A stretch of DNA of 64,000 nucleotides from Escherichia coli (GTDB lineage: Bacteria > Pseudomonadota > Gammaproteobacteria > Enterobacterales > Enterobacteriaceae), in NCBI RefSeq assembly GCF_013122565.1, contig NZ_CP053258.1. The stretch is one strand, 5' to 3'. Within the stretch, counting starts at the first letter, position 1, and each line of letters begins with the position of its first letter. Under the pieces are notes generated by a model. It was given only the letters and a program-made list of their open reading frames with translations, made no database searches and had not been told where the DNA came from. Below are positions 1 to 12,215 of this stretch, piece by piece. Both the position numbers and the translations under genes were made by a program.

Positions 1-1051
1 CAATTAATTTAAATCTTATTATTTGATTAACAAAGCATCATCATTACTGCATCTTATTCTCTATATCTTTTACGTCGGGGTAGATTCTTTATGGTCATTA
101 CGGGCAGGCGACATTTCATTATATTACCATTTGCATTCACGCTTGTAACCCTTAAGAGTTATATAAAAAGGAAAGAGTTCTTGCTCATGGTATTACTGAG
201 ATCGGATTAACCATGAGGTTAGCTATATAGAGAGCTTTGGCTTTGCGACAATTGGCTTAAGCAGCCACATTATGCCTGGCTTATCGTTGAAAGGGAGAAA
301 GAAGAGCAAAACGGTTTGGCAAGCTTTCATTCCCATCTAATAGCAATCACCGCTATACATCATCCCTTAACGTATTCTGGTCTTCATAAAAATGTTATTC
401 TAAATTAAAGATTGTAATGATTTTAATAATGTTGTTATTATTTTGCAACAAATCAATATAACACAATGATTATTCGCGATTTTTTATTAGTTAAGAGGAA
501 TTGTTTTTACAGATTGCGCTACAATTCCGCTCATTTCTCACCACAGGAAAAGCTGAAGTAATCTTAAATGACTGTATTAACCCTTTTCTCCGCTGCCAGC
601 ACTCTTAAATATCGTTGTTTTATTCTTATAAAAACGGCTTTTTTGACATAAAAAGTAATAGGTTCAGCCATTATGCAGAATTTACAACCTGAGAAAATCG
701 CAAAAAACACTCTTATTCAGAATAAAACTCTGTTTATCATCTTTCGGTAAGCATTAAATTACTATATTACCGTTCAACATGAGTATGAATGAAAATTCAG
801 TTGTTATACATGTGATGAATGTCATATATTGTGCTCATCGATTGCAGGACATCGCTATTCTTTTAGAGATACAGATATCACGCTGTTACTCTCTAATATA
901 AAGAACACGCAAAGATTAGTTGTGTTACTGCAGTTGTTATGTCGCATATGGAATGCCCATTGTTACATCTTTAGTAAAAAGCTTTATTCACTTTCAAAAT
1001 TTTTACTCCATGAAGATAGGCTGTTTTGCTGCAAGCAATTGAGTTAGTGCA

Positions 1052-1675
1052 ATGAACAAGAACTTACTAACAAGGGTAATTATCATTTCGGATGATCTAT
1101 ATTACCTTCAGGGATTAAGTGCAAAACTAGGTCACCATTATCGTTTTTTTATTGAGTGTTTTTTTTGTTCTCAAAATGCATGCAATAATGACCTAAGTAC
1201 ACTTAGATTTGACAACCGCTTTACAAAAAACGTACTTCTTGTCGCAGTGGATGACGTAAGTATACTTGCAAAACTGCCAGATTTGGCCAGGTTTTTAATG
1301 ATTGTTTCACTAAGAAAGATGAAAAACAGAAATATCTTCTTTTCACTTTCAGAGCAAACATTCATTAGCCGATATATAAAATTGAATAAACTCATTACTT
1401 TGATTAAAAGTACTGATAAAGACCAGCAAGTCAGGCAGGTGACTCTGACAAGGTATGAGTGGGATATCTATTACTTATTTTTTAAGATAGATAACAAAAG
1501 AATATTGCACACCCTGCTAAAAAAGGATGTCAAGTATATTAGTCACTATAAAATATCAGTTTTTAATAAGTTTGAAATTGCTTGTGATAGTGATGGCTTT
1601 TACATTTTCAAGGCACTTATACAGTTAAGGAGATTTACCCGTTTTAAAAACGTCAGATTGTATCAATTGCATTAA
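1052..1675 (+). CDS. Putative LuxR-family (FimZ/EcpR-like) transcriptional regulator immediately upstream of the fimbrial operon; the receiver-like N-terminus appears degenerate
   Basis: 207-aa ORF. C-terminal segment LTRYEWDIYYLF...KDVKYISHYKISVFNKF resembles a LuxR/FixJ-type HTH. Very AT-rich codon usage. Position directly 5' of the fimbrial major subunit gene. No similarity search was run. Confidence 0.45.
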   Translation: MNKNLLTRVIIISDDLYYLQGLSAKLGHHYRFFIECFFCSQNACNNDLSTLRFDNRFTKNVLLVAVDDVSILAKLPDLARFLMIVSLRKMKNRNIFFSLSEQTFISRYIKLNKLITLIKSTDKDQQVRQVTLTRYEWDIYYLFFKIDNKRILHTLLKKDVKYISHYKISVFNKFEIACDSDGFYIFKALIQLRRFTRFKNVRLYQLH

Positions 1676-8613: not shown

Positions 8614-9291
8614 TGCTCCTTATGAGTAAGTAATATTTAAGGGATAATTTAAGTAATTTTTAGATTTCAATAAAAAAATATAAACATTAAAACTCAGCAT
8701 GAATAATAAACATCAAATCTTATATACATTTAAGTAGTGATGTATCACGTAAAAATATAGTCATCATAGATGTTATGCAGTACGCACAAAAAAACAGACT
8801 GGATTTGCTTGCTGATCTATAATCTTTATCTAAATTACTATTGGCGCTTTGGATAATAACATAAGCATATATTACCTCCTAGCAATAATAGACATAACCT
8901 CATATCAAGGTGTCACTGGTAAATAATCGGATAAAGGACAGTACCGGTCGGCACATAGAGCTTCTTCTATTTCACCAGAAGTGCACAGCAGGGAACTACC
9001 AATCACACGGTTAGTGTCATGGGTGGAGGATGCGTCCCGTTCTTTCCCAATAACGGGGATACGCAGTTTTTATCAGTACATGCAGAAAAACCCCTAATTC
9101 ACATCACTGCAGAAAGCATTTAATAGAAATATACATCGTTTAAGAATTTCAATTAAATCAAGATTATTCTTAAAAATCAGATAATTCACATTTGCATTTT
9201 TAGGAAATTATACTATAGTGCAATTAATGTTCTTGCCTTTATTTTGTAAGTAATACTGGATTTGTAATACACAACTAAGGTATAAAATGTA

Positions 9292-10108: not shown

Positions 10109-10600
10109 ATGACTCAAAGATATTTTCTATTTGCGGGAATAATTTTATGTGCTTTTATTGCAGCAATTCTTAGCCATATTGCGTTTCATCATGCCAATGA
10201 ACCAGCAGAGCAAAACATATCATGTAATGCCCATGTTATTAATTTCACCGATCATACGAAAATGGATCAATACTTTTCGTTAAATATGATTTCTGAAAAT
10301 AATACAGGGAATATGTATCTCACGGGTGCTTACACGGTAAATGGGAAAAAAATGGGTTTCATCCGCCGATATGTGAGTTTTACATACAAGAAATTCCGTG
10401 ATACCGTTTATTTCACCACAGTTAAAATACAAAAAATACAAAAAGATGATAACATTAGTGATGAAATCCTTGAAAATATCACTTCTGATTTTTTCATAAA
10501 AGTAGACACCTCAATTAATTTTTATGTTACACGTCAAAATGATTACAACTACGTATTCTCTACAGGCAGGACACCACGCTTCATATGTATTTCCCACTAA
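10109..10600 (+). CDS. Small N-terminally anchored periplasmic partner protein (ToxS/FidL/YqeJ-like) of the upstream ToxR-like regulator
   Basis: 163 aa. Starts 4 nt after the upstream stop (coupled). Single N-terminal TM (YFLFAGIILCAFIAAILSHIAF) followed by an Asn/Thr-rich periplasmic domain. Size and arrangement match ToxS/FidL-type partners. Confidence 0.5.
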   Translation: MTQRYFLFAGIILCAFIAAILSHIAFHHANEPAEQNISCNAHVINFTDHTKMDQYFSLNMISENNTGNMYLTGAYTVNGKKMGFIRRYVSFTYKKFRDTVYFTTVKIQKIQKDDNISDEILENITSDFFIKVDTSINFYVTRQNDYNYVFSTGRTPRFICISH

Positions 10601-10700
10601 CAGTAGTGTTGATCATTGCGCTTGTCATCAGATAATAACCTTCTGATGGCTTTGTTTATATTTTAAGGCAATAAAAAACATTCCAATATTGGTTAATTAT

Positions 10701-12215
10701 TTATCTGTTTACATACCACTGATAAAACTCTGTCGCTTTCATTGGTTTTGCATATAAGTACCCCTGAACTAATGTCACGTTATTATGAATAAGATATTCC
10801 GCCTGGTGAGGAGAACTGACACCTTCTGCAATCGTTATCAAATTTAGTCGATTACTCAGCTTAATAATAATATCTAAAACTGGCGTTTCGTCTTCCGCTG
10901 TAGTGAGTGTGTCTATAAAGCTTTTATCTATTTTAAGATAATCAACAGACAACTTTTGTAGAAGGCCAAGGGAACAATATCCCGTGCCAAAATCATCAAC
11001 TGCAAATTCACAGCCATGGATCCTTAATTCATTTATTTTCTGTAATGCAAGATCAGTGTCTTCAACCAGATTGCGTTCGGTAATCTCAAGGACAATATTA
11101 AATTTATCAGATATTGCATTTTTAATATGTAAAACATCAGCAACAAAGTCAGGATGTGCAAGATGTTCCGCGGCAATATTTATCCCAAGGTGAAACGGTT
11201 TTTTCACTTTCCAGCTTTGTACATCCTGAATAATCAGTTCAAAGAGATGCTTAGTTAACGGTATTATTAAATTTTCCTCTTCTGCCGCGCGGATAAAAAC
11301 TACCGGAGATATATTTTTACCATCTTCGCGTTGCCAGCGCATTAACGCTTCAACCCCCAGACACGCTTTGGTTGTCGTGTCGCACACTGGTTGATAATGC
11401 ACAGAAAATTCTCCGGATGACATTCCTTTTTTAATTTCTTCTGCCAGCGACATTTTCCGTGACATCCAGTGCTGCCATAAGAAATAGAGAATAAAAGAAA
11501 GAATAATAGATAACGGCAAAATATAAAGCACATTGCTAATGATATAGGGATATAACGAAATCATCGGCGTAGTAACTGTAAGACGAGCCTGACTGTTCGC
11601 AGAATTAAAATCTCTTTTTAACATATATAACCTGTCATTATTATTTACACCACTAATAATTGCAGGCCCTTCAGTAAAGCGAAGAGAAAATGAATCATCA
11701 TTCTCATCATCAAGAACATCCATTAGATCATAGATATATCGTGACTCGACAATACTAAAAGCTGTCATATTATTCCCTAATGGCATAAGGAACACTATGG
11801 CTGTTTTACCTGGTACAAAACTTGTTCCGCTAATTGATACTATGCGTGATTCTTTATTTTTATTGTGAAAGCTCGTACCGTAAACATCGTTAACATTCAT
11901 TTTTTTGAAACCGCTAACTGAAGAACATATTTGGAAATTATTTTCTATAAGACCCGTTGTTCGAACATAGGGAGTCAATGCTCCGTTAGCAATCAACTGC
12001 TCCAGGATATCTTTGCAGGGTTTCATCACCAGAATAGAAGTAAGCTTTGTCGTATGCTGGACAATTTGCGTAACATTATCAAGCTGTTTTAACAGAATAC
12101 CGGCGGTAATTGTCGTATCTCTATTCATTTGAAATATTGACATAGCAAACGATAGTAACACCCCCAGAATGCCTGGTATTATAATGAGTACAAACATTTT
12201 TTTGTTGAATACCAT
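10701..12215 (-). CDS. pdeT: CSS-motif EAL-domain c-di-GMP phosphodiesterase (PdeT/VmpA-like), absent from K-12
   Basis: ORF 10701..12311. Probable start is the Met at 12215 (MVFNKKMFVLIII...), immediately before TM1. Periplasmic domain with CSS motif (QICSSVSG) and a second Cys, then TM2. EAL domain with intact EAL (GVEALMRW), LEITE and DDFGTGY motifs. The gene name is assigned from memory of the EHEC vmpA/pdeT locus next to dgcT. Confidence 0.75.
   Translation of the reverse strand: MVFNKKMFVLIIIPGILGVLLSFAMSIFQMNRDTTITAGILLKQLDNVTQIVQHTTKLTSILVMKPCKDILEQLIANGALTPYVRTTGLIENNFQICSSVSGFKKMNVNDVYGTSFHNKNKESRIVSISGTSFVPGKTAIVFLMPLGNNMTAFSIVESRYIYDLMDVLDDENDDSFSLRFTEGPAIISGVNNNDRLYMLKRDFNSANSQARLTVTTPMISLYPYIISNVLYILPLSIILSFILYFLWQHWMSRKMSLAEEIKKGMSSGEFSVHYQPVCDTTTKACLGVEALMRWQREDGKNISPVVFIRAAEEENLIIPLTKHLFELIIQDVQSWKVKKPFHLGINIAAEHLAHPDFVADVLHIKNAISDKFNIVLEITERNLVEDTDLALQKINELRIHGCEFAVDDFGTGYCSLGLLQKLSVDYLKIDKSFIDTLTTAEDETPVLDIIIKLSNRLNLITIAEGVSSPHQAEYLIHNNVTLVQGYLYAKPMKATEFYQWYVNR

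Follow-up and report, generated by a model that had tools for sequence, protein, structure and literature searches.

The DNA upstream of fimbrial operons is known to act in several ways. The type 1 fimbriae are governed by fimS, a 314-bp element with 9-bp inverted repeats that serves the fimB and fimE recombinases, and phase variation through Dam/Lrp methylation or through repeat tracts is known from pap, sfa, daa and Haemophilus hif. The cryptic fimbrial operons of Escherichia coli K-12 are examples of silencing by H-NS, and the csgDEFG–csgBAC intergenic region, which is conserved across Enterobacteriaceae, integrates many regulators. Fimbrial regulators of the LuxR type can be paired with EAL phosphodiesterases, as in Salmonella (fimW–stm0551) and Klebsiella (mrkI–mrkJ). 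For O157:H7, the fimbrial operon lpf1 is reported to be controlled by H-NS and Ler (Torres et al. 2007).

Here we analyse a previously uncharacterized but ordinary example of a well-known kind of sequence, the long and AT-rich regulatory spacer that, on acquired DNA, separates divergent genes and precedes a silent fimbrial operon. It lies at the left end of the window (the whole 64-kb stretch of E. coli DNA analysed) and precedes the fimbrial cluster loc6. Its likeness to lpf1 and the cryptic K-12 operons consists in an AT-rich non-coding leader on acquired DNA, a cluster headed by a putative regulator gene and an operon for which the transcription-start tables list no gene-associated start in standard culture. 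It differs from them in its unusual length of 1.39 kb, in lying also upstream of a divergent two-partner-secretion operon and in lacking the published high-affinity H-NS motif, its silencing by H-NS being putative. With csgDEFG–csgBAC it shares the arrangement of two surface-structure operons that diverge from a long spacer, one of them opening with a gene for a regulator modelled as LuxR/FixJ-type; unlike that region, most of this spacer is unconserved even within the species. The result has little importance beyond the locus. It provides a regulatory map for the uncharacterized loc6 cluster and for the otpAB operon of O157:H7, made up of a candidate promoter at 801–830, a leader of about 214 nt, a first gene whose product is modelled as atypical NarL/FixJ-type and a conserved hairpin on the otpA side, and it removes the more exciting options, namely that the region holds an invertible switch, encodes a small RNA or conceals a gene. 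For work on the silent adhesins of EHEC, 255 bp are worth reporter testing and the other 800 bp or so are probably compositional ballast.

A non-coding divergent spacer on an acquired island

The first 1,700 bases of the window found matches, at 90–99.8% identity, in 380 of the 5,426 complete E. coli genomes, in all 380 as one collinear piece at one place per genome that covered at least 80% of the query. Strain PapRG-04-4 (locus L002) gave the top match and O157:H7 and O55:H7 strains came next, at about 99.4%. Window positions equal L002 coordinates minus 9,000, and gene boundaries were taken from the RefSeq annotation of genomes 99.4–99.8% identical to the window. RefSeq annotation and the literature assign the locus to O-island 47 (OI-47), or S-loop 71, the gene content of which includes grvA, a FidL-like gene and an EAL gene. 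Positions 1–1051 lie between otpA (ECs1282, minus strand) and ECs1281/loc6 (plus strand). otpA encodes the exoprotein of the OtpAB two-partner secretion system and is transcribed leftwards, opposite to ECs1281, a Z1539-type gene (1052–1675, plus strand; 207 aa, annotated as a hypothetical protein) that stands first in the loc6 chaperone–usher fimbrial cluster (ECs1276–1281). In the annotation of the near-identical genomes, the otpA start codon is 340 bp to the left of the window edge, so 1–1051 is only the right three-quarters of an intergenic region of 1,391 bp, the longest annotated intergenic gap in the stretches examined. The first-pass annotation had described 1–1051 as a long, AT-rich, non-coding region upstream of a fimbrial operon. 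Composition and annotation bear out this description, with the exception of the left boundary, because the region extends 340 bp beyond position 1. That annotation had also allowed for an upstream coding gene reaching into these bases; with otpA starting where it does, no upstream gene enters the window and that reservation lapses.

The G+C content is 33.4% in 1–1051 and 33.6% in the whole intergenic region, compared with 49.3% in the window; expressed as A+T, 66.6% over 1.39 kb and about 69% in the adjacent 624-bp gene stand against 50.7%. Several lines of evidence show that this DNA is not translated. Its longest stop-free stretch, of 84 codons, is matched by dinucleotide shuffles (80.5 ± 17.7). 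Among nine other E. coli alleles, a 72-aa open reading frame (ORF) at 829–1047 is frameshifted in six and a 48-aa ORF on the minus strand is broken in four, and a Pfam search of 15 translated segments covering all frames returned nothing above noise. In nine E. coli alleles, variable sites are spread evenly over the three codon phases across the intergenic region (46/47/51, p = 0.86), and each of its 180-nt sub-windows is compatible with uniform phases. The same count gives 3/4/28 for ECs1281 (1052–1675; p = 3e-8) and 4/2/20 for the pilin gene. Furthermore, a ribosome-profiling study lists no translated small ORF in the corresponding interval of strain Sakai. We conclude that 1–1051 encodes no protein and that ECs1281 is a real gene. 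The earlier remark that the first kilobase holds no convincing ORF is thus supported by shuffles, broken alleles, Pfam and codon phase alike.

The locus occurs in 7% of the complete E. coli genomes and the island is also found in another genus, which marks it as horizontally acquired. Among 15 billion proteins, only two other lineages carry a relative of the ECs1281 protein with more than 50% identity. One of them (loci L010–L013) has a fully syntenic island, with genes about 80% identical in DNA, next to actS and tRNA-Gly, a chromosomal site other than that used in E. coli. The actS gene of this host shares only 75% identity with its E. coli counterpart, and the host therefore belongs to another genus. 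Its intergenic region measures 1,293 bp and has 37% G+C. Taken together, the region is a non-coding, AT-rich, divergent spacer on a horizontally acquired island, where it separates otpAB from ECs1281–loc6. A mobile-element origin was considered and rejected: there was no phage match, and the two ‘plasmid’ matches are E. coli records, one of them chromosome-sized at 4.9 Mb and the other a 212-kb EDL933 record that we take to be a mislabelled chromosomal fragment.

Sequence constraint and the candidate promoter of ECs1281–loc6

We measured variability along the spacer as the share of variable columns among nine E. coli alleles. The distal AT-rich spacer, 1–796, has no detectable sequence constraint: 16.0% of its columns vary, rising to 21.7% in 401–750, and third codon positions of the neighbouring genes vary at 11.4%. 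The most conserved block in the window is 797–853 (plus strand), with 3.5% variable columns (2/57; binomial p = 0.011), followed by 7.6% in 854–1051, and the 169 bp adjoining otpA, outside the window, show 4.1%. Overall, 797–1051 is 6.7% variable, compared with 16.0% for 1–796 (Fisher p = 9.5e-5). The E. coli alleles that diverge most differ by about 9% in the intergenic region, as much as they do at four-fold sites of the flanking genes (7–10%). The comparison with other lineages gives the same picture. Positions 1–796 are essentially unalignable to L010, and alignment to L010 and L014 is confined to islands: the otpA-proximal segment, the otpA-side hairpin, 751–772, 797–853, and the ribosome-binding site with the start codon. 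Against L010, the 797–853 block aligns at 74.6% identity over 59 nt (E = 5e-6) amid unalignable surroundings. A metagenome scan with this promoter block found E. coli-type alleles only, and therefore added no new lineage. These data show that the distal 800 bp or so change at least as fast as neutral sequence and are unconserved across genera, and that constraint is concentrated, on the loc6 side, in the promoter-proximal 255 bp or so and, beyond the window edge, in about 170 bp next to otpA and in one hairpin. The functional part within the window is probably these last 255 bp or so; the other 800 bp show no sequence constraint and, if they matter, probably do so only by their composition and length.

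A sigma-70-like promoter candidate lies within the conserved block at 801–830 (plus strand; scan match at L002 9801–9830), with a −35 hexamer TTGTTA, an 18-nt spacer and a −10 hexamer TATATT. All three lineages, E. coli, L010 and L014, have an identical −10 hexamer, and they retain the −35 as TTGT[T/G]A. Promoter-like hexamer pairs are as common in the region as in shuffles (10 observed, compared with 9.8), and the call therefore rests on conservation in three lineages and not on the quality of the match. From the position of the hexamers we infer a transcription start near A837, which corresponds to about 1,435,185 on the minus strand of EDL933 CP008957.1. An AT block, GCATTAAATTACTATATTACCG (751–772, plus strand), lies about 65–85 nt upstream of this predicted start; within it, E. 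coli, L010 and L014 are identical at ATTAAATT and at flanking columns, making the block a possible site for a regulator or nucleoid protein.

The predicted 5′ leader of ECs1281 (837–1051, plus strand, about 214 nt) is moderately conserved. It can be folded into a stem–loop at 839–936 in which CGATTGCAGGACAT pairs with GTGTTACTGCAGTTG, and it folds better than shuffles do (z = −3.6 for 836–935 and −2.7 for 830–945). The allelic changes in this stem–loop fall mostly at unpaired positions and two are wobble-compatible; the E. coli alleles contain no compensatory pair, and there is no clear retention of the structure in L010 or L014. We regard it as possibly a real structure. A weak Shine–Dalgarno-like GAG is legible at 1041–1043, ahead of the ATG of ECs1281 at 1052–1054 (plus strand); GAGT and CAATGAA around this start are kept in L010 and L014. 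A terminator scan detected none between ECs1281 and the pilin gene, and co-transcription of the two is therefore likely.

Folding had a further bearing, because the first-pass annotation suggested that a region of this kind may contain small RNA genes. Two 100-nt windows fold better than shuffles, 836–935 on the plus strand (z = −3.6) and 436–535 on the minus strand (z = −3.0), and a truly conserved hairpin sits 32 nt outside the window; these signals speak for a gene for a small RNA or a small protein concealed in the in-window part. However, the folding of 836–935 is better explained as that of an mRNA leader, 436–535 falls in the most variable segment, and 1–796 has no conserved unit inside it. 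Rfam returned nothing at E below 0.1 (the best E-value, 0.19, belonged to an irrelevant match), the terminator scan detected no intrinsic terminator on either strand, and recent reviews of O-island-encoded regulators name only GrvA for OI-47, and no small RNA. The disrupted ORFs, the lack of codon periodicity and of Pfam signal, and the absence of a listed translated ORF in the Sakai interval count equally against a small protein. We therefore think a concealed gene of either sort improbable, and the suggestion of a small RNA gene within the window finds no backing in Rfam, terminators or conservation.

The neutral evolution of the distal spacer is also what a decayed gene would leave behind, and the gap is large enough for a gene of about 770 bp. 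The candidate is an EAL-domain gene, because homologues of ECs1281 are usually preceded by one and the spacer could be its decayed copy: in the remote homologues L019–L022, an EAL gene of about 255 aa lies directly upstream, with divergent MarT/GrvA-like and FidL-like genes nearby, types of gene that OI-47 has too, and in L018 an overlapping 253-aa gene precedes the homologue and a fimbrial operon follows it. Against this, tblastn searches with four EAL proteins of the upstream regions in E. coli, L003, L010 and L014 gave a best E of 1.3, and no frame of the spacer has a Pfam match. The island in the other genus, in which the spacer is equally unalignable, also lacks such an EAL gene, and the composition of the spacer (33% G+C) is far from that of the island coding genes. 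We consider that there is only a slim chance that the spacer is a gene remnant, and take it to be regulatory DNA with a candidate promoter and a predicted leader on the loc6 side.

Phase variation and possible silencing

Two forms of phase variation were weighed. In the first, a fimS-like invertible promoter would switch loc6 on and off, or toggle between otpA and loc6. The region resembles fimS in being non-coding, in preceding a fimbrial operon and in containing short inverted repeats. The longest perfect one in E. coli has 12-nt arms, invariant in nine alleles, that flank 628 bp: the left arm is at −26 to −15 (L002 8974–8985) and the right arm, GTTGTTTTATTC, at 614–625. In the L010 lineage, a different inverted repeat, of 13 nt, flanks 259 bp (p about 0.018). 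However, the two repeats are non-homologous, and that of E. coli is at chance level: shuffles reach at least 12 nt in 11% of cases (p = 0.11), and a control intergenic region of 687 bp contains an inverted repeat of equal length. We judge it to be a chance match. The promoter candidate at 801–830 is 176 bp outside the segment bounded by the E. coli repeat and is also outside the L010 segment, whereas an invertible promoter would have to lie within. The fim-type repeat TTGGGGCCA is absent from the region. No recombinase gene is annotated on the island (ECs1272–ECs1298) or in the rest of the 64-kb window, and the nearest integrase gene, ECs1299, belongs to SpLE1, about 20 kb away. Moreover, a single orientation was found throughout, in 380 of 380 complete genomes and in all four L010-type assemblies. 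The region thus differs from fimS in its chance-level repeats, the lack of an adjacent recombinase, the position of the promoter candidate and the lack of any inversion in 380 genomes, and we hold an invertible promoter to be very improbable. The first reading had mentioned such switches as a possibility and had noticed no obvious one by eye. The computed search agrees with the observation, its longest repeat being 12 nt, and goes against the possibility, with no recombinase on the island and 0 of 380 genomes inverted.

In the second form, expression would be controlled by a Dam/Lrp methylation switch of the pap kind or by a repeat tract subject to strand slippage, mechanisms that many chaperone–usher operons use. 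For the pap-like case, we looked for two GATC sites about 100 bp apart together with papI/papB-type genes. The 1.39 kb contain only two GATC sites, at window positions −300 and 200, with 500 bp between them; more than 600 bp separate the promoter candidate from the nearer one, and no papI/papB-like genes are annotated. As for slipped-strand tracts, the sole tandem repeat consists of 2.6 copies of a 9-mer and homopolymers never exceed 6 nt. Control of either of these kinds appears extremely improbable.

Silencing by H-NS is plausible, because the region is AT-rich, horizontally acquired and without reported gene-associated transcription starts. In the EDL933 Cappable-seq tables, which cover eight conditions, neither the pilin gene nor otpA has a gene-associated start, the only one listed being internal to otpA; orphan starts were covered in part, and transcription may still begin inside the region. 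Lettuce lysate and a temperature of 14 °C have been reported to induce loc6 genes. Against silencing, no site for the high-affinity H-NS motif TCGATAAATT was present at up to 2 mismatches, compared with 4.0 ± 2.2 in shuffles; this motif is not obligatory for H-NS binding. A search of the published literature found no H-NS ChIP table covering the locus.

The account that we favour, and consider likely to be right as a whole, combines a non-coding spacer that has a promoter and leader on its loc6 side, silencing under an H-NS/StpA coat and a distal part that acts through composition. In this account, the sigma-70 promoter at 801–830 would start transcription near 837, and an mRNA with a leader of about 214 nt, possibly structured, would run through ECs1281 into the pilin gene. 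About 2 kb of DNA with 66–69% A+T, made up of the spacer and ECs1281 and covered in Sakai by NC_002695.2 1,348,062–1,350,075, would be coated by H-NS/StpA in the same way as other xenogeneic AT-rich DNA, and this coat would silence both divergent promoters in standard culture until a counter-silencer or signal intervenes. Candidates for such relief would be cold, plant extracts, and island regulators such as ECs1281 itself or GrvA. The distal spacer would contribute by its composition and not by a specific sequence.

The spacer has kept its length without keeping its sequence (1,384–1,392 bp in E. coli and 1,293 bp in L010). A stronger version of the account would treat its 1.3–1.4 kb as selected for length and A+T content, forming a common platform for silencing or insulation that links otpAB and loc6 or keeps them apart and is anchored by the conserved otpA-side hairpin. 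Retention of length could simply reflect a low deletion rate, and we regard selection for such a platform as unlikely.

The ECs1281 protein and the otpA-side hairpin

The 207-aa ECs1281 protein has no match of its own above cut-off in Pfam or NCBIfam. A profile of 11 family members gave sub-threshold matches to GerE, RcsA, FimZ and the RcsB DNA-binding domain at the right position, and sub-threshold GerE, RcsA and FimZ matches occur in 1–3 of the 11 members. The AlphaFold model of the protein depends on alignment depth, being unusable with four sequences (pLDDT 41.8) and reaching a pLDDT of 81.5 with an alignment of eleven. In the latter model, a receiver-like alpha/beta domain is followed by a four-helix LuxR-type DNA-binding domain. 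When it was compared with the PDB using Foldseek, the top 30 matches were almost all full-length RcsB, EvgA, FixJ, NarL, VraR and StyR; the highest probability was 1.00 and the highest TM-score 0.55. The family alignment shows acidic residues at 14–15 and 67–68, and no kinase gene is annotated adjacent to ECs1281. On the strength of the model, ECs1281 is plausibly an atypical NarL/FixJ-like regulator, and the label ‘fimbrial regulator’ that the first gene had been given is reasonable, given this fold and the fimbrial and EAL context of its homologues.

The closest described counterparts are the Salmonella fimW/stm0551 and Klebsiella mrkI/mrkJ pairs. The resemblance lies in a protein of about 200 aa with a C-terminal LuxR-type helix–turn–helix and a receiver-like N-terminal domain, encoded near fimbrial genes, and in the pairing with EAL genes, which extends to the remote homologues of ECs1281. 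In contrast to fimW and mrkI, the sequence similarity of ECs1281 to named families is below every curated cut-off, and ECs1281 has no adjacent EAL partner, the island EAL gene vmpA being about 9 kb away.

The most interesting feature of the intergenic region lies on its otpA side, where a 16-bp perfect hairpin (L002 8918–8968; z = −6) ends 32 bases to the left of the window edge, 260–310 nt upstream of the otpA start. It is not a canonical terminator. The core pattern TGAAATGAT-N15-25-ATCATTTCA is too unspecific to trace the element elsewhere, and a scan of genome contigs returned unrelated genomes among the matches listed. Two base pairs of the stem show compensatory changes, on both sides, between E. 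coli alleles, and two one-sided changes give G–U pairs only on the otpA-sense strand. In the platform reading above, which we regard as unlikely, the hairpin might be a previously undescribed cis-regulatory element in the leader of otpA. Each of the 380 genomes with the locus has a single copy of the hairpin, and its stem core is kept in L010.

Conserved sequence on the otpA side of the spacer

On the side of the divergent AT-rich spacer that faces otpA, the exoprotein gene of the OtpAB two-partner secretion system, we found a conserved, single-copy hairpin with a perfect 16-bp stem. It lies just beyond the window edge (window -82 to -32; 8918-8968 in L002, the E. coli PapRG-04-4 locus) and precedes the otpA start by 260-310 nt; its folding z is -6. 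Between E. coli alleles, both partners are altered at two base pairs, and two one-sided changes give G-U pairs solely on the otpA-sense strand. The stem core, TGAAATGAT/ATCATTTCA, is retained in another enterobacterial genus, at 8975-9011 of the syntenic island L010. The hairpin is a possible cis-regulatory RNA element within the leader of otpA.

The 169 bp adjoining the otpA start (L002 8661-8829; window -339 to -171) are also strongly conserved: 4.1% of columns vary, and identity to L010 is 76% in an alignment that extends about 100 nt into the start of the otpA coding sequence. Presumably this segment serves as promoter or leader of otpA. In EDL933 it has no reported gene-associated start of transcription, and the sole start reported for otpA there is internal (CP008957.1 1,436,432).

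Variable stretch and inverted repeat

Among nine E. coli alleles, the spacer varies most at window 401-750, where 21.7% of columns are variable, about twice the variation at third positions of codons in the genes on either side. The LR14 allele (L006) is recombinant, with identity to L002 of 98.5% on the otpA side and 91.9% on the loc6 side. Four promoter-like hexamer pairs cluster on both strands at window 397-448, in a stretch of 29% G+C. The cluster is conserved neither within E. coli nor across genera, and probably represents spurious promoters of the kind common in AT-rich acquired DNA.

The equivalent spacer of L010 carries a perfect 13-nt inverted repeat with 259 bp between its arms (L010 9310-9322 and 9582-9594; comparison with shuffles gives p of about 0.018). 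Its right arm recurs in another lineage (L014 89-100). The repeat has no homology to the E. coli inverted repeat and is present in a single orientation in all four assemblies (4/4), with no inverted form among them.

The 207-aa gene and its island

The 207-aa protein encoded at window 1052-1675, annotated as hypothetical, has a predicted model resembling an atypical NarL/FixJ-type regulator. It is almost an orphan: in a set of 15 billion proteins, identity above 50% is confined to three lineages. Its remote homologues (loci L018-L022) are paired with EAL genes and also with divergent MarT/GrvA-like and FidL-like genes, and all these gene types are present elsewhere on OI-47 too.

An entire OI-47-like island, comprising fatty-acid genes, otpAB, loc6 and a grvA-like pair, occupies a different chromosomal site in the other genus, adjoining actS/tRNA-Gly (L010). 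The EAL gene vmpA is missing from the end of this island, as seen when L010 19778-20624 is set against window positions of about 10,400-12,000. Structural genes are 72-97% identical to those of the E. coli island, and the regulators (the 207-aa gene, grvA-like and FidL-like) share just 50-55% protein identity.

In some strains loc6 is undergoing decay: in O157:H7 TR01 the usher gene carries a frameshift (L001 12117-14634), in ESDR8 an ISEc8 element splits it (L008 7575-9388), and in YZMc3-1 a frameshift affects the gene for the 207-aa regulator (L004 5390-6012).
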